From contig JAXLZO010000001.1 of assembly GCA_046350815.1 (NCBI GenBank), positions 540,001-572,000 on the forward strand: a DNA stretch of 32,000 nt. The letters are read 5' to 3'. Under the pieces are notes generated by a model. That model saw only the letters and a program-made list of their open reading frames with translations, did not search any database and had not been told where the DNA came from. The DNA comes from Candidatus Saccharimonadota bacterium (GTDB lineage Bacteria > Patescibacteriota > Gracilibacteria > BD1-5 > UBA2023). Shown here piece after piece: positions 5,803 to 27,404 of this stretch. Position 1 is the first letter of the stretch. The number at the start of each line of letters is the position of its first letter. The position numbers and the translations under genes were made by a program.

Positions 5803-6858
5803 TTAATCACAAGCAATATCACAACTTCGCCATGCTTCCATTTGACTCGATGAAGACCCATCATCTGGGATAGCATCGAGAATTGATTGGTGCTCGTGTG
5901 TGATCGTATCGAGTACAGCATGGATCATCTCCGGTGTTTCAACCGTCACGAGTGCTTGACGATAGGTCTTCACTCCGGGAAATCCATGAAGATATTGCAC
6001 AAGATGCTTGCGAGCCTCGAGCATTCACTTTCGTCACTTTCTCTCCCAAAGAAGATCACCATGAAGTCGCATAATTTCGAGGATTTCTCACAGAGTCGGT
6101 CGAACATGTCATGGAAGAAAAGACCATGGATTCCCAAAGGTAGATCGACCAATCATAAATCCGTCGAGCACAGTATCTCCTGATCCGATCCATGTTGATT
6201 CTTGTATCCTTCTGATACCATCATCGTAGTCAATTACATCACCATTCCCTATGACCGGTATAGAGAGATGACGCTTGAGATCAAAGAGTGCTGACCAGTC
6301 AGCTTGACCGGTGAATGCTTGCTTGTAGGTACGGGCATGAACAGTGATGAGATTAGCTCCAGCATTTTGAAGTCAGAGACAAAAATCCTTGAGAAGTTCT
6401 GGATTTTCCCAGCCAAGCCGTGTCTTCACTGATACAGGTATTGACACTGCTTTACTCATCTCTTCTACAATGCGAAATGCTGTGTCACGATTGATCATGA
6501 GGGATGATCCATGACCACTTTTGACCACTTTCTTGGCAGGGCATCCCATATTGATATCCACTCAGGCAGCTCCCGATTGCTCGATCATGACGGCTGCCTT
6601 GGCGAACATATCTGGATCTTTACCAAATATTTGAAATATCACGGGCTTTTCATCTGCTTCATGGGGGAGTACTGTGTCAGCAAGTGTTTTCGAATGCACC
6701 AGACCATCGGCAGAATAGAACTCTGCAAAAGTGATGATATCAGGAGCGACTCGCTTCATCACACGACGATAGGGAGAATCACAATATCCATCCATAGGGG
6801 CAAGTGCGGCGATCGGTCATTTGGACGCGAGATCGGACCAGAAAGATTTTGAGGGCAT
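5803..6858 (-). CDS. dus: tRNA-dihydrouridine synthase
   Basis: MPSKSFW...APMDGYCDSPYRR..., GAA[TGA]VDINMGCPAKKV, LITVHARTYKQAFTGQADW, MIGRSTFGNPW. The frame was checked codon by codon. TAA at 5803-5805. Confidence 0.9.
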
Positions 6859-7017
6859 AACAAAAAAAGATTTTCGAGAAAATGAGAGTATGATTATATG
6901 GAAATCTGAGAAAAACCGATATTGTTCTGTACAAAATCTTTGAAAGATATAATGCAAACAAAGATATTTTCTGGATTTTGTACGGGAGATTATTCAGGGT
7001 ATGTAGGGAAATTATAT

Positions 7018-7048
7018 AAAAAAGGACGGTGGCATGAAGCCTCCGTCC
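7018..7048 (-). terminator. GC-rich rho-independent terminator about 160 nt downstream of the foreign-looking gene
   Basis: GGACGGTGGC-ATGAA-GCCTCCGTCC (10-bp stem, 1 mismatch), followed on the minus strand by TTTTTT (complement of 7018-7023). Confidence 0.6.
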
Positions 7049-7208
7049 AGTGTCTCAAAGATTTAGTATGAGTGTCTTTTGATACCTAATGGTACTAGGA
7101 CTACGTTATACCAGATCTTTTTTGATATTTCCTCCTTTTGTCAAACGCTCATCGTGCGTCTGACTTTATGTGAATGAATCCTATACGATGATTGGGGGGT
7201 GAAGGTGT

Positions 7209-8252
7209 TTAGCTAAGCGCCTTCACAAGGATTGGACGGAGAACCTCCCAGCGTTCAGGCGAGAGATGCAGGAGAAAAGGAGTATTTGAAATCACTCCAT
7301 TTTCCGGCTTCCATCCATCTTTAGGGCGCACACCGAACACTTGTTCAGCAAGAGCTGAGAGATCTACCCCTAGTCGCTCACCGCTTTTTGTGCGTGCAAG
7401 ACTTATCTGCACGCCAAAGGTCTTGGCAATGGGTCCAAATTTGACTTTTCGACCACTGACCAAAACACCAATGTCCAACTCACTCGCCAATGTTGGTGGA
7501 TCAAACTCTGCTTCATCCGGCATTTCGAGGAAACGGATGGATGGTGAAAGGAGCGTTGCTAGAGTGGCAAGATTCTTTGCACTTTCGACCTTCCGTTCAT
7601 ACTCGACCGCAAGACGATCGAGCCCTTCCATACCAGAAGCATCACCTGCAGCAGCAGCCACGAAGGCATGTACTACATCGGAGAACACCTTGGCTCGATT
7701 GGGTGCACCGAATGCAGGTATAGCACCCCATGCCCGAACGAGCTTCCAGCCAATGTGACTTAAAGCTTGCTCAGTCTTGCCAGTATGCGGACCATCAAGG
7801 ATGGCAGCATCACTTTCCAGTTGAGCATAGCTGATAATCCCTGCTGCCTTGAGGGCGGCAGTAACACCATCTTGATCCGCATCAGCTATAATAATAGCAT
7901 CAGCGAACTCGCCAACTTTCACGAGACTGGCACATGCTGGGTTTTCGGAGCGAGTTGTAACAACCGATCGGTCGCCAAGTAGCTCACGGCAGCGTGCAAC
8001 AGTTACACCATCACGATCGCTATCGCCATGATGATCACGCAGGTGCACTTCTGCACCAGCAACGATCAGTCCCTCAATCAAGGGGATAAGACCAGCTGTT
8101 GGTGGATGATCAATGATGACCACCCGCTTGCCGGCAATACCACCACCATCATTGGTGATCTCGGCAACGAGGGTAGAGCCCTCTTCTGCCTTGAAAGCTT
8201 TCGCAAAATGTAGTTCAGTAGAACCAAATGCTATTTTAATCGCAGTAGCCAT
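7209..8252 (-). CDS. Hypothetical 347-aa protein, compositionally foreign; DHH/RecJ-like metal-binding-type motifs in non-canonical order (function unassigned)
   Basis: Uninterrupted ORF even under the standard code. Visibly much higher GC than the flanks. Ala/Gly/Val/Arg-rich. 32 Gly, all GGN, and no TGA. Motifs VVIIDH, HLRDHHGD, IIIADADQDGVTAA. TAA stop. Confidence 0.75.
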   Translation of the reverse strand: MATAIKIAFGSTELHFAKAFKAEEGSTLVAEITNDGGGIAGKRVVIIDHPPTAGLIPLIEGLIVAGAEVHLRDHHGDSDRDGVTVARCRELLGDRSVVTTRSENPACASLVKVGEFADAIIIADADQDGVTAALKAAGIISYAQLESDAAILDGPHTGKTEQALSHIGWKLVRAWGAIPAFGAPNRAKVFSDVVHAFVAAAAGDASGMEGLDRLAVEYERKVESAKNLATLATLLSPSIRFLEMPDEAEFDPPTLASELDIGVLVSGRKVKFGPIAKTFGVQISLARTKSGERLGVDLSALAEQVFGVRPKDGWKPENGVISNTPFLLHLSPERWEVLRPILVKALS

Positions 8253-8267
8253 TTTTTTCTCTCTATC

Positions 8268-8325
8268 TCGGTGGTTGAGTTTACTCCCGTAGGACAGAAA
8301 TTGTCAGTAGGGAGTGGTGGACCGA
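8268..8325 (-). promoter_or_regulatory. Structured 5' leader of the foreign-looking gene (three stacked helices)
   Basis: Pairings read from sequence: TCGGT(8268-72)/ACCGA(8321-25), ACTCCC(8283-88)/GGGAGT(8310-15), GACA(8293-96)/TGTC(8302-05). It ends about 15 nt upstream of the ATG at 8250-8252. Confidence 0.35.
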
Positions 8326-8561
8326 TGAATATTTCATCAGCCCAATGCTTTCTACTGTATATCAAACATCACCACATCTAACCACTAATAGTAATCAAAT
8401 GAACATTGATAGATGACATAATAACATTATTTAATTTAATGTCAAATTCTAATTTATAGAAGTCATTTCTATTTCACCCTGTTACATAGCGAGTTTCCCC
8501 TATATACGAACGGTTCTTTGCTTCTAATCTTTCGTTAGATCAAAGTGTAGATACATTTTTT

Positions 8562-8774
8562 ATGAAACTCGTCTACGATGATGGCCATCTTTTTCGGTTG
8601 TTAATCGATACCGATCATTCCTTTTCTCTCATTCAAAAATATAAGAGCAAGAAAACATATTTCTCCCAAAGAATGATTGATCGTCAACTAAATCTTGTTC
8701 TCTCCTTTGCCTGATCAGAAATTATCTCTATAATTCGAAAAATTCGATCGTTCCACACTCATGCAAACTGATAA
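8562..8774 (+). CDS. Small hypothetical protein (70 aa), visible only with TGA=Gly
   Basis: ATG 8562, two in-frame TGA, TAA 8772-8774. Overlaps the next gene start by 14 nt (operon-style coupling). No recognisable motif. Confidence 0.3.
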
Positions 8775-9474
8775 AATCCGTACTCCGAAAAAAGTACCCA
8801 CCGACTCAACCACTCAGCGATCACTTCCTTTTTCTGAGATTCGTGATAATCTCATCATGATGAAAGATGGCTCTTCTCGTATGGTGATTAAGGTACACCC
8901 GATCAATTTTGAGCTCAAAAGTGAGGAGGAACAGGATGCAATTATTCTCTCATTTCAGAGAGTGCTTAATGCTCTGAGATTCCCAATCCAAATCGTGGTT
9001 CGATCACTCAAGATTGACCTCGCACCATATCTCGCGAAGCTCTCGAACCGTGCCTATGCCCAGCAGAATGCACTCCTTCAGACACAAACCCTCAAATATA
9101 TAGAGTTTCTCAAAAATTTGGTCGAGTATGCTCAGATTATGCGCAAGGAATTCTATATTGTTGTTCCTTTTGATTATGAGGAGAATGCAAGCGTAAAACG
9201 AAGCGGGATTCAGGGGATATTTGAAAATTTTTGGGCTGCAATTACTAATGAAGAAAGCATAACATCTATAAGATCGAATCATCAGCGTGTTGATAAAATG
9301 AAGAAGGGAAATATGGAACGAGTGTCTCAGATCAAGACATCTCTTGAAAGTGTAGGACTCAGATCTCAGGAACTCACAAAAGATGAGATTGTAAAATATC
9401 TCATCAGTTACTACAATCCTCGTCTAGGTGGTGACCTCAATCCAAAAGATATGACCAAGATTGTTCTCAAATAA
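8761..9474 (+). CDS. VirB4/TcpF-type conjugative ATPase N-terminal-domain-like protein, without an ATPase domain (237 aa)
   Basis: SLPFSEIRDNLIMMKDGSSRMVIKVHPINFELKSEEEQDAIILSFQRVLNALRFPIQIVVRS follows the pattern I recall for the N-terminal region of Gram-positive-type VirB4 family proteins. No Walker motifs. No TGA. Confidence 0.55.
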   Translation: MQTDKIRTPKKVPTDSTTQRSLPFSEIRDNLIMMKDGSSRMVIKVHPINFELKSEEEQDAIILSFQRVLNALRFPIQIVVRSLKIDLAPYLAKLSNRAYAQQNALLQTQTLKYIEFLKNLVEYAQIMRKEFYIVVPFDYEENASVKRSGIQGIFENFWAAITNEESITSIRSNHQRVDKMKKGNMERVSQIKTSLESVGLRSQELTKDEIVKYLISYYNPRLGGDLNPKDMTKIVLK

Positions 9475-9504: not shown

Positions 9505-12357
9505 ATGTTCATTCGAAGATTTTCTCAAATAATAATCGTATTCCTGGTGATAACAGGAATATTTTTATGAGCATGGACAACGATGGGAAGTGAGAGTATC
9601 GCCTCATGAAACATAGTGATCACTGAAATCGCTGCGAATGTGATAAATGAAAATGATGATGAGTATTTTATCATTCGTAATATTACCTGTCAGGATATCA
9701 ATCTTGAAGGAATTTCGATTCATGATGCAGCGCTCAAAACTCATCATCTCACAGGAATACTCGCATCTCATACAAGTCGGACAATTTGATATCTAGAATC
9801 GAGAATTCAACTCAACAATACGAATGAGGCCCTCACGATACGATCAAGTACTTGAATGGCAATTGATGAAAAACAGTATACAAAAACTACCAAGTGAGTT
9901 CCGATTTTGTACACTCCTTCTGACCATGATTGTTCTGCTGTAGTAGAGTCTACAGGATCAACAACTTGAACAACTGTAACCATAAGTGAATCATGAAGTT
10001 CTGCCTCATGAGAGACATCCACTTGATCTGAGTGAGAAGGTGAGATAGCATTCTCTGGATCAACATCATCCGGGAGTACGACAAGTTCATGAAATACTTT
10101 GTGAACAACATGATCAACCTCTTCATGAATGATCGATGCAACGAGTTCATGAAATAACGTCAGCTTTTCTGGAACCATCATATCATCTGGATCAGAAAAT
10201 ATCTCAAACTCTGGATCAACATCATCAGGAAGTGCACTGAGTATGAGTTCATCAGGCGAAGAAATATCATCTGGCACAATCTCATCAACCGGTACAATAT
10301 CTGAAAATACATCATCAGGAAGTGTTACATTTTCTTGAAATATCAATTCTTCAACGGGTTCAACTATCACCACAGGATCAGTCTTTGCTGGTGAGCTCGC
10401 ACCAATATTTCTCTCGATTGAAGATAGAAATGTGGATAACATCTATGATACGATCAAGATTGCTTATAATGAAGATTTGACTGGCAGTATCGATGTATCA
10501 ACACTTCTTGTATTCAGTGCTACGTGAGGATTGTTCTCTGATCGTAAATTCGAGGGAACATGAGCTTTTGCTTCATGAGAAATCTCTGGAAATATTCTTA
10601 CGCTGCATCTTGTACGAGGTAGTCATACAGGTAGTTTATCCGATATAGCATGGAAGGTAAACTCTACAACCTCGAGTCATTTTCGTATCAAGGGATCGAC
10701 CAAAAATCTGCAAGGACTCTATTCTCATCGAGTTGCGCAAGATCTGACATATACAACGATTCTTGAATGATACAGTCGTGAGATGATATCGGTTCAAACT
10801 TTGATGTCATCTTCTGCTACTATTACTACAGGTGAAGTTTCCTCATCACAAACTTCTGTTGGTGGCAATTCTGGAGTTGAGAGTACTTCTACTTGATCAG
10901 TTGACTCATCAACTGACAGTCTCTCTGGATCAACACAGACTCCAATGTTCTCTCTGCATCTCCAATATCCATCAAATGCAACATTGAGCGGTGATACAAT
11001 CTTGTGTACGCAGCTCACATGTCGAACGAATTTTGAAATTCTCATTGCTTCCGGATCACTCAAATCATGCACATTTACTCTAAACGGAGTTGTGATCGCA
11101 GAGAGTTGTAACCCACCATCACTTACCCTCGATCAAGTAATGAGTTATGCAATCGATATATCCGCAACTGCGAAAACAGGAGAAATCTACAGTCGTCATT
11201 TGCTTTGGAGTTATACGCCTCAGGCCGCACTCACATCAACAAAGACTACATCTTCCTCCTCTTCTTCCCCACAATCAAGCTGTTTTGTGAGTGATGGTAG
11301 AGAATTTCTTCAGATTGCCTGAGTCAACCCCTCTCCGAAAGATGACAAGAGATCGAGCGAATATGTATTGATCACAAATAATACCAATACTCCTATTTCA
11401 CTCTGTGGATGCCATCTTGAACGTACCGATGAAAAATGAAAAACAACGCTTTCAAAGGATTTGGAAGCAATTGTTATGCCGTGAATTTCCTATCAATTAA
11501 CAACGAGTGAATCCAAACTCACACTTCCAAAGGTCGGAGCAAAAATTGATTTGGTATGTGATGCAAAAACTATCGATAGTCTGCATTATCGTGGCAATCA
11601 TGTTGATGGTCGACTGATCACACAGGAAATGATCGAAGCAGAGGATCGTATAAGAGATTTGTTACAAGGATATCTTCTTACATGATCCATTGATACTATA
11701 GCTGATGATACTCAAGAAAGTTCATCATGAGTCATGGATCTTTCTTCTGTATCGGATATTGAGGAGTGAACGAGTGATGAACATTTTCTCGACCTGAACC
11801 CCCTGCTTCTCTGGAGTCTGAGCAATTCCACTATAGCTTCAGATTTAAGTGAATGAGATGATGGATCAATCGAATGTTCTACAAACAATTCGTGATGTAG
11901 TATCACGGCAGAAATCATCGGACTTGGAAGTCATATGATGGTTCGCTGGATAGTGGACGATCTAGATATAACAAATGGTTCCGGCGCGGTTTGGATGAAG
12001 AGACAAAATTATACGTTTGAGCTCTCACCAGGAGTACATCATATTCAAACTATGTTCATGAGTGATGAGAGTGATTCTACTCTTTTTGAGCCCATAAATT
12101 CACTTATTCATGTAGTGCGTACACCAATAGTCTCAAGAAAACTTGCACCACTACCAAGACCAAAGAAAGCTAAAAAGATAGCACAACCAAAGGCACAGAA
12201 AATTGCTTGAAACGAAGCAAATTCATCAGTAATCAATTCTGATATACGAACAGAACTAACGAATGAAGAGCAGGCTGCTTGAGCGAGTATACTCTTTTCA
12301 TTCGGTGCTCTTGGTGGCTACTATATTCGGAGAAAAGTGTTGATGATGTACTTTTAA
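9505..12357 (+). CDS. Large cell-surface protein (950 aa): N-terminal TM/signal, two lamin-tail-like domains, Ser/Gly/Thr-rich spacer, C-terminal TM anchor
   Basis: One frame from ATG 9505 to TAA 12355-12357, walked codon by codon, with about 31 TGA(Gly). Track ORFs 10945-11322 and 11935-12210 are in this frame. LTD-like NIVITEIAANVINENDDEYFIIRNITCQDINLEGISIHD and LQIAGVNPSPKDDKRSSEYVLITNNTNTPISLCGCHL. Tail ASILFSFGALGGYYIRRK. Confidence 0.8.

Positions 12358-26000: not shown

Positions 26001-27404
<1,404 letters not shown>

Follow-up and report, generated by a model that had tools for sequence, protein, structure and literature searches.

A TGA-free gene for a DHH/DHHA1-like protein, probably an old import, in a code-25 Gracilibacterium

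Gene X, as we designate the open reading frame (ORF) of 347 codons at positions 7209 to 8252 on the minus strand of a 32,000-nucleotide (nt) stretch of contig JAXLZO010000001.1 (assembly GCA_046350815.1; positions 540,001 to 572,000), is best explained as an accessory gene that is functional and stands alone, in a Gracilibacterium that uses genetic code 25. The whole stretch is here called the window, and all positions refer to it unless stated otherwise. Gene X is real, and we consider it probable that it is an old import from standard-code relatives, whose synonymous sites have since been ameliorated and whose product is an unannotated DHH/DHHA1-like protein. An earlier reading, made from the sequence alone, had pointed to a recent import from a higher-GC, standard-code organism. 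Horizontal acquisition from a standard-code, GC-richer background is also the probable origin according to our analysis, but a recent arrival is not supported and gene X appears to be long resident: its GC content at third codon positions (GC3) and its codon fit are in the native range, its nearest relative is only 65% to 66% identical, and the locus is the same in independent assemblies.

The recoded host genome

On the sequence evidence, the host is a code-25 Gracilibacterium. The part of the window covered by ORFs of at least 100 codons increased 3.7-fold once TGA was read as a sense codon, and TGA codons occupy canonical glycines of the Walker A motif (LV-x-PSGAGKTT) and the signature region (GEK[11 protein letters not shown]) of an ABC transporter, which identifies the host code as code 25 and not code 4. 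The named relatives closest to the neighboring tRNA-dihydrouridine synthase (Dus) are Candidatus Gracilibacteria. Gene X itself is free of TGA and ends with TAA, and its embedding in a recoded genome, as proposed earlier, was confirmed by the ORF listing and the code test.

Composition and codon usage

The GC content of gene X is 0.509, compared with 0.392 for the rest of the window, and ranks first among 27 ORFs, which bears out the contrast with the neighboring genes that had been estimated by eye. However, of the excess over the native genes (0.111), ~0.086 lies at codon positions 1 and 2 and ~0.025 at position 3. Relative to native genes, the GC content is 0.67 at position 1 (GC1; z = 2.9), 0.46 at position 2 (GC2; z = 1.5), and 0.40 at position 3 (z = 1.4), and at four-fold degenerate third positions it is also 0.40 (z = 0.9; rank 6 of 27). 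About three quarters of the excess thus falls on the first two positions, which identifies the amino acid composition as its source. Alanine makes up 13.8% of the gene X protein (5.9% in native genes), glycine 9.2% (6.9%), and valine 8.4% (5.1%); arginine, which had been listed with these three as enriched, is hardly raised (5.2% versus 4.6%). The summed percentage of Gly, Ala, Arg, and Pro, which have GC-rich codons (GARP), is 33.1, and that of Phe, Tyr, Met, Ile, Asn, and Lys, which have AT-rich codons (FYMINK), is 18.7; the native values are 20.4 and 29.1, respectively, and gene X is the most extreme of the 19 long proteins of the window.

Counting also upheld the claim that all 32 glycine codons of gene X are GGN. 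None is TGA, a codon that specifies 27.9% of the glycines in native genes (P = 2.9e-5 at the pooled rate), and AGR codons are absent from its 18 arginines. At synonymous sites, we were not able to find any anomaly of gene X with respect to its host, as GC3, four-fold GC3, and the chi-square of codon usage per degree of freedom (chi2/df) were all in the native range. Without glycine, the chi2/df against the pooled native genes is 1.91 (native spread, 0.82 to 2.93), and the choices of CTC/CTT for leucine, GAT (0.90) for aspartate, and ATT/ATC for isoleucine are of the host type. Gene X fits its own host best (1.88, compared with 2.1 to 2.6 for three other carrier hosts), and sister copies from other hosts fit the host of the window at 3.3 to 12.8, i.e., 2 to 7 times worse than gene X does. 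The native-like synonymous usage suggests that the synonymous sites were adapted in place and that the arrival was not recent.

A recent and still unameliorated import from a higher-GC, standard-code organism would be in line with the highest GC content in the window, with the absence of TGA and AGR, and with the standard code of all other carriers compared (see below). The two intergenic spacers flanking gene X (6859 to 7208, 350 nt, and 8253 to 8760, 508 nt) point in the same direction, being the longest in this half of a compact window where spacers are elsewhere typically 5 to 100 nt. We nevertheless regard such an import as very unlikely, as the GC excess is mainly nonsynonymous, the leucine and aspartate codon preferences are those of the host, the sister copies fit that host so much worse, the nearest non-self homologue is already this divergent, and independent samples contain the identical locus.

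Gene X is not alone in lacking TGA almost or altogether. The native ATP synthase beta subunit gene atpD (Table 1) is almost as poor in TGA, so that the lack of this codon is neither unique to gene X nor diagnostic of import; the example of AtpD suggests that highly expressed or conserved genes of this code-25 genome avoid the reassigned codon. There is a methodological caution in this: total GC content and the absence of TGA alone are no proof of recent transfer, and position-specific GC values and native controls such as AtpD are required.

Family, carriers, and history of gene X

The gene X protein has 45 close homologues, all of them without a Pfam domain and without a name that indicates a function. 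An exhaustive profile search extended the family to 212 clusters at 50% identity; neither this search nor cluster look-ups gave a named member, and two peptide patterns matched 5 of 185,579 species representatives. The family is found mostly in Patescibacteria and is known only from metagenomes: its carriers are Saccharibacteria, other Patescibacteria, unnamed metagenome-assembled genomes (MAGs), a jumbo-phage contig, and one nominally gammaproteobacterial MAG. In this last MAG, the member (L009; CAYNYL010000001.1, 181 kb) is 57% identical to the gene X protein, and its tblastn match seemed frameshifted. No match was obtained in tblastn searches against 50,697 GenBank phage records and against PLSDB plasmids, and pattern scans of IMG/VR with one family alignment (A1) and with the jumbo-phage member (P0044) retrieved no relatives; a second alignment (A2) was too divergent for pattern building. 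Across 30 family sequences, 31 columns are invariant, indicating strong purifying selection on the family.

For the subclade to which gene X belongs, 11 loci, including the window, were compared. In all of them, the GC content of the gene exceeds that of its flanks by 9 to 27 points, with the change falling precisely at the borders of the gene. The host of the window is the only recoded one, and the other 10 carriers use the standard code. Relative to the called genes of their hosts, the sister copies are anomalous at GC3 (z = 1.6 to 5.6), and in L010, the GC3 is 0.92 compared with 0.36 for the host (z = 6.4). The L010 copy (positions 9902 to 10918 of that locus, from the Patescibacteria MAG Dive96_bin10.367), with a GC content of 0.69 in a 0.42-GC locus, is the most pronounced GC island of a single gene that we observed, and here a family member does seem to have been transferred recently. 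No neighboring gene is conserved across the 11 loci, and the idea of an operon partner for gene X was rejected on these grounds. Genes of the toxin-antitoxin or defense type (PemK, PIN, HepT/MNT, Fic, and AbiEii) are often near family members in several loci. In one locus (L020), a gene (10317 to 10568) for bAvd, a diversity-generating retroelement accessory protein, is located ~3 kb downstream of the family member and a PIN-domain gene is directly adjacent, which fits a variable or defense region.

We seriously considered that GC-richness could be intrinsic to the fold, and rejected this explanation on account of two distant members that are ~26% identical to the gene X protein and are located among core genes. 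One of them (L024) has a GC content of 0.329 in a host of 0.352 (GARP, 18%; FYMINK, 37%) and the other (L025) a GC content of 0.375 in a host of 0.378 (GARP, 24%; FYMINK, 25%), whereas the subclade copies have GC contents of 0.51 to 0.73, with a lower host value in every case (GARP, 32% to 40%; FYMINK, 15% to 21%). Since the distant members match the composition of their hosts, the fold does not need to be GC-rich, and the signature seen at all subclade loci is best taken as the historical mark of a GC-richer lineage.

Alternatively, gene X could be native and vertically inherited, its composition resulting from amino acid needs and from translational selection for high expression, under which GGT and CGN are preferred while TGA and AGR are avoided. 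This would agree with the native appearance of its GC3 and codon usage, with AtpD, which shows the same glycine and arginine pattern and a high GC1, and with the broader family, which is mostly from Patescibacteria and has its distant members among core genes with host-like composition. However, the distant homologues that have the same core (D48, DHH, and D126/D128; see below) have a low-GC amino acid composition, and in other hosts the subclade is anomalous at synonymous sites, with GC3 z values of up to 5.6 to 6.4. In addition, no other recoded carrier was found, the gene is absent from the two nearest sampled Gracilibacteria dus loci, and the distribution of the subclade is sporadic or patchy with no conserved synteny, as is typical of a horizontally moving gene. 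On balance, vertical descent is unlikely, even if it is the strongest of the competing explanations.

The history that we favor, import followed by long residence, would run as follows. The subclade would have taken on its high-GC composition, rich in Ala, Gly, Arg, and Pro, in a GC-richer standard-code lineage and would then have spread horizontally. The copy in the window would have arrived long ago, with third positions and synonymous choices drifting to host usage while purifying selection kept the GC-rich amino acid composition. In its usage of the glycine and arginine codon blocks, gene X resembles its standard-code relatives. The window copy has 4 GGA, 8 GGC, 3 GGG, and 17 GGT codons, similar to the copies in L005 (2, 11, 5, and 13, respectively) and L006 (3, 8, 5, and 14). 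In the subclade, GGC dominates in high-GC hosts (16 to 25 GGC and 0 to 2 GGT codons), and GGT and GGC are both used in low-GC hosts, with only 0 to 6 GGA and 0 to 3 AGR codons per copy. GGA is the sole glycine codon that is one step away from TGA. The TGA- and AGR-free state of gene X may therefore reflect glycine codons that drifted from GGC to GGT, with the GGA precursor being rare; if the AT pressure acted mainly via C-to-T transitions, an ameliorating copy would become rich in GGT long before acquiring any TGA. Selection against TGA, as in AtpD, may have contributed.

Several observations weigh against an import or limit what can be said of it. Next to gene X, we found only short repeats of chance size and neither insertion scars nor attachment sites, and there are no flanking mobility genes apart from the TraC-like ORF described below. 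The nearest sampled relatives (~66% Dus identity) share no synteny with the locus in the window, as synteny is not conserved at Dus identities of 63% to 68%. At this distance, the sampled Gracilibacteria allow neither a dating of the insertion by synteny nor the definition of an empty site. None of the sampled carriers has a GC content equal to that of gene X itself, and the high-GC source lineage is one that we infer. Finally, a history of drift and translational selection of the kind seen in AtpD explain the absence of TGA and AGR equally well.

If the import is accepted, gene X is a worked case of gene flow across genetic codes, in which a standard-code gene works unchanged in a code-25 host, and its composition, together with the lack of TGA and AGR, serves as a slowly decaying record of origin that outlasts synonymous amelioration.

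Fold and conserved motifs of the gene X protein

The gene X product is probably a divergent, unannotated two-domain protein of the DHH/DHHA1 type, as judged from its structure model. The AlphaFold2 model of the full-length protein (pLDDT, 95.1; pTM, 0.88) consists of two alpha/beta domains with a long helix between them, i.e., it has the two-domain DHH/DHHA1 architecture. In a Foldseek search of the PDB, its top 19 matches were all DHH/DHHA1 proteins (GdpP, PAP phosphatase, RecJ, PggH, NrnA, and Cdc45/GAN), with a best E value of 3e-6, a probability of 1.0 for the top 13, and ~10% identity. The top matches in BFVD were DHH phosphohydrolases of jumbo phages, with TM-scores of up to 0.49 over ~324 columns. 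Global TM-scores to DHH structures are low (0.25 to 0.49), which can be ascribed to the mobility of the DHHA1 domain: this domain is known to move relative to the DHH domain (PMC5593865, which also gives the NrnA active-site residues used below).

Two of the conserved motifs (Table 1) map, by sequence alignment, to DHH motifs II and III in canonical spacing. D48, which follows a predicted strand (residues 43 to 47), is invariant in the 30 family sequences, and its conservation in a set of 88 is 90% or higher; D73-H74-H75, after strand 68 to 73, is invariant in the family. Residues 41 to 101 of the family member P0032 align to positions 41 to 101 of the Pfam DHH profile, and hhalign, comparing a profile of the 88 family sequences with four NrnA-type sequences verified in the PDB, placed family residues 44 to 75 on NrnA residues 76 to 104. 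The published active site of NrnA agrees with this mapping. The DADQDG segment would most simply be motif IV, on the basis of its spacing: the distance from H75 to D126 is 51 residues (D124, D126, and D128 lie 49 to 53 residues after H75), compared with 52 from H104 to D156 in NrnA. Within the subclade, D124, D126, D128, and G129 do not vary, and for D128 this invariance extends to all 88 sequences. However, no alignment method reached this region, and suboptimal hhalign alignments stopped at the motif II-III block. In the C-terminal domain, G319, N323, and P325 of the segment found where canonical DHHA1 has GGGH are invariant, with H329 conserved at 90% or more. R101, C107, D148, and D153 are further invariant residues, and altogether nine Asp/His residues are invariant or nearly so. 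It had previously been noted that these motifs recall DHH/RecJ phosphoesterases in a noncanonical order. The motifs indeed form the conserved core of the family, but the order is canonical, namely II, III, and putative IV; the apparent disorder arose because DADQDG had been taken as motif I.

Other observations weigh against a DHH/DHHA1 assignment. Residues 1 to 205 modeled alone (pLDDT, 93.1) gave no Foldseek match at an E value of 0.001 or lower, and the top 50 matches were generic Rossmann-like proteins, with no DHH protein among them. It is thus mainly the C-terminal domain, along with the architecture as a whole, that accounts for the full-length match, and the assignment of the N-terminal domain to DHH is weak, drawing on faint sequence signals (hhalign E value of ~0.01; Pfam E values of 0.005 or higher), on motif spacing, and on that architecture. 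Pfam and NCBIfam gave no match to the gene X protein at an E value of 1 or lower, PADLOC gave no significant match, PHROGs gave one only at an E value of 0.43, and nothing significant was obtained from PDB sequences, whether the query was the single sequence or a profile. The DHH family PF01368 was the only one recurring below threshold (5 of 30 members; best score, 17.5 bits versus a cutoff of 28.1), and the curated thresholds of neither PF01368 nor PF02272 (DHHA1) were reached. Neither GGGH nor GGH occurs in the gene X protein. Residues 1 to 42, where motif I would be expected, contain no invariant acidic residue; K18 and F20 are invariant there, G25 is conserved, and position 24 is semiconserved (E/D/Q).

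These observations leave some room for a protein outside the DHH superfamily, in which the N-terminal domain is Rossmann-like, has acquired its DHH-like motif by convergence, and is fused to a DHHA1-like binding domain; such a protein might be a non-catalytic scaffold or sensor, as Cdc45 is, or have another chemistry. The generic Rossmann-like matches of the N-terminal domain, the missing motif I and GGGH, the failure of curated models to reach threshold, and the low global TM-scores would all suit such a protein. We find it doubtful, as the top full-length structural matches in two libraries are all DHH/DHHA1, Pfam hmmscan and hhalign both match D48 to motif II and DHH to motif III with canonical spacing, near-invariance of nine Asp/His residues is typical of a metal site, and the TM-scores can be accounted for by domain mobility. 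The fold, which had been left open in the sequence-only reading, is hence narrowed to DHH/DHHA1 for the full-length protein, but the N-terminal domain alone has no DHH-specific match.

In a DHH/DHHA1-type protein, D48, D73-H74-H75, and D126/D128 would probably bind divalent metal. The C-terminal domain would retain an Arg/Lys strand (SLARTK) and have G-x-I-S-N-T-P-F in place of GGGH. By analogy, metal-dependent hydrolysis is the most likely activity; the substrate would be a small phosphoester or phosphodiester, for instance a nanoRNA, pAp, or an (oligo)nucleotide in cyclic or linear form. The missing motif I and the replaced GGGH imply that the metal site and the substrate pocket would differ from those of the characterized members. 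Nucleotide metabolism and phage defense are poorly understood in Patescibacteria, and this unannotated and mostly patescibacterial family is thus of interest as a candidate nucleotide or oligonucleotide phosphodiesterase.

The gene X locus

The exact gene X protein and the gene order TraC-like/gene X/Dus/ABC transporter were found on at least five contigs from independent assemblies and different sequencing runs, and 2.2 kb across both junctions of gene X are 100% identical between the window and four of those assemblies. An assembly chimera, or read-through from a contaminant onto a Gracilibacteria contig, which the sharp, gene-precise GC step might have suggested, is thereby excluded for practical purposes, also in view of the adaptation of gene X to the synonymous usage of this host.

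The gene has signals of its own, as proposed earlier (Table 1). At the intrinsic terminator, which starts 160 nt beyond the stop codon, none of 200 shuffled sequences folded as well; a simple terminator scanner overlooked the hairpin because of a single internal mismatch. The promoter-like site matches 11 of 12 consensus positions, but such sites are no more numerous in the region than in shuffled sequence. A perfect AAGGAGG, resembling a Shine-Dalgarno sequence, lies in the 3' spacer (7131 to 7137, minus strand), with no suitably spaced ATG, GTG, or TTG downstream. In the other carrier loci compared, the 3' spacer shows no sequence conservation and the leader has no sequence in common with the leaders there; no Rfam family matched the leader, and Rfam searches over 6800 to 8800 gave only subthreshold noise. 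A regulatory RNA at gene X was rejected on these grounds. The two flanking spacers yielded neither repeats nor remnants of genes.

Gene X had been described as lying between a native dus gene and a remnant of a conjugation gene. The identity of dus is solid, whereas the TraC-like assignment of the divergently transcribed 237-residue neighbor, the only mobility-related neighbor of gene X, comes from a precomputed match (PF26593), and our own Pfam scan gave only a subthreshold match (PF11130; E value of 0.009). Farther upstream, the 950-residue protein, probably a surface protein, is encoded by the most TGA-dense gene in the window, with 31 in-frame TGA codons specifying 38% of its glycines.

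Table 1. Positions of gene X, its signals and motifs, and other genes of the window
Feature	Positions	Strand	Description
Dus, tRNA-dihydrouridine synthase	5803-6858	-	Native downstream neighbor; Pfam PF01207, E = 1.4e-71; 7 in-frame TGA
Intrinsic terminator	7018-7048	-	Hairpin 7024-7048, then T-run 7018-7023; dG = -17 kcal/mol, z = -4.4
3' untranslated spacer, 160 nt	7049-7208	-	Between stop codon and terminator; modest folding, z = -2.4
Gene X coding sequence	7209-8252	-	ATG start, TAA stop at 7209-7211; 347 amino acids; supported by ORF listing, homologue family, and structure model
GVISNTPFLLH	7266-7298	-	Codons 319-329; C-terminal-domain motif in the place of canonical DHHA1 GGGH
DADQDG	7866-7883	-	Codons 124-129; putative DHH motif IV by spacing; corresponds to NrnA D156
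RDHH	8028-8039	-	Codons 72-75; proposed DHH motif III; corresponds to NrnA D102-H103-H104
VVIIDH	8106-8123	-	Codons 44-49; D48, proposed DHH motif II, corresponds to NrnA D80
Structured 5' leader, 148 nt	8253-8400	-	dG = -45.5 kcal/mol, z = -4.5; lineage-specific
Promoter-like site	8418-8445	-	TTGACA, 16 nt, TATTAT, extended -10 TG; consensus match only
TraC-like protein, 237 amino acids	8761-9474	+	Divergently transcribed; native-type composition; 0 TGA among 7 Gly
Ser/Thr/Gly-rich protein, 950 amino acids	9505-12357	+	N-terminal hydrophobic segment, C-terminal hydrophobic tail; faint precomputed LTD domain
Metallo-beta-lactamase, beta-CASP, and RMMBL protein, 595 amino acids	12379-14166	-	RNase J/CPSF-type ribonuclease; 15 in-frame TGA
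AtpD, native ATP synthase beta subunit	26004-27404	-	1 TGA among 43 Gly (0.02); GGT 0.53; AGR 0.04; GC1 0.63

Comparison with known systems

The known proteins closest to the gene X model are the NrnA-type enzymes, i.e., the nanoRNase/pAp phosphatase NrnA (5J21), the GdpP catalytic domain (5XSI), PggH (7D62), and archaeal PAP phosphatase (8A8K), which are its top structural matches. Shared features are a stand-alone protein of ~310 to 350 amino acids, two alpha/beta domains, one N-terminal and one C-terminal, connected via a long linker helix, a DHH after a beta strand, and a basic C-terminal strand (SLARTK in the gene X protein and RFRSKG in the enzymes, compared by eye). In the gene X protein, the DHH is preceded at 26 residues by an Asp and followed at ~51 residues by a cluster of Asp, in agreement with the spacing of motifs II, III, and, putatively, IV. 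However, the identity is ~10%, no curated model reaches threshold, and the N-terminal domain of the gene X protein alone is not recognized as DHH by Foldseek. The NrnA-type enzymes have motif I (H-x3-D-x-D) and GGGH, whereas the gene X protein has the invariant K18 and F20 and G-x-I-S-N-T-P-F-L-L-H instead, and D124, D128, D148, D153, R101, and C107 are invariant residues that it has in addition.

The best global structural matches are the DHH phosphohydrolases of jumbo phages (TM-scores, 0.41 to 0.49; root mean square deviation of ~6.3 Å over ~300 to 330 columns). Such enzymes of phages PaBG, vB_EamM_Y3, and vB_AbaM_ME3 have been proposed to counter cyclic-nucleotide immune signals (PMC7824862). 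A member of the gene X family, P0044 (43% identical), is itself encoded on a phiKZ-like jumbo-phage contig (ENA metagenome contigs L016, 10001 to 10999, and L017), next to phiKZ_gp29PR, PhiKZ_VTX, a helix-turn-helix (HTH) protein, and an HD-domain protein; its GC content is 0.41 in a 32%-GC phage, with a GC3 z value of about 2. Unlike the phage enzymes, with which the gene X protein shares ~10% identity, the copy in the window is chromosomal and lies outside any prophage. A role in phage-host nucleotide signaling can be put forward as a hypothesis only; it would fit the patchy distribution as a stand-alone gene, the toxin-antitoxin and defense genes nearby, and the jumbo-phage copy. Taken further, the subclade might be a mobile, conflict-related phosphodiesterase that degrades cyclic or linear oligonucleotide messengers and shuttles between Patescibacteria and their phages, TGA-free through repeated exchange between code-11 and code-25 hosts and a variant without motif I. 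We consider this quite improbable as a whole, but if true, gene X would be a single-gene analogue of the dual-code phages of Gracilibacteria and a new DHH-like catalytic variant lacking motif I.

TGA-free phages compatible with code 11 have been predicted to infect Gracilibacteria and Absconditabacteria (PMC10746230). Like gene X, they read the same under codes 11 and 25 in a code-25 host, but they are whole phage genomes, whereas gene X is a single chromosomal gene with host-adapted synonymous sites. By analogy, such dual-code phages are a plausible route by which standard-code genes could flow into recoded bacteria of the Candidate Phyla Radiation (CPR).

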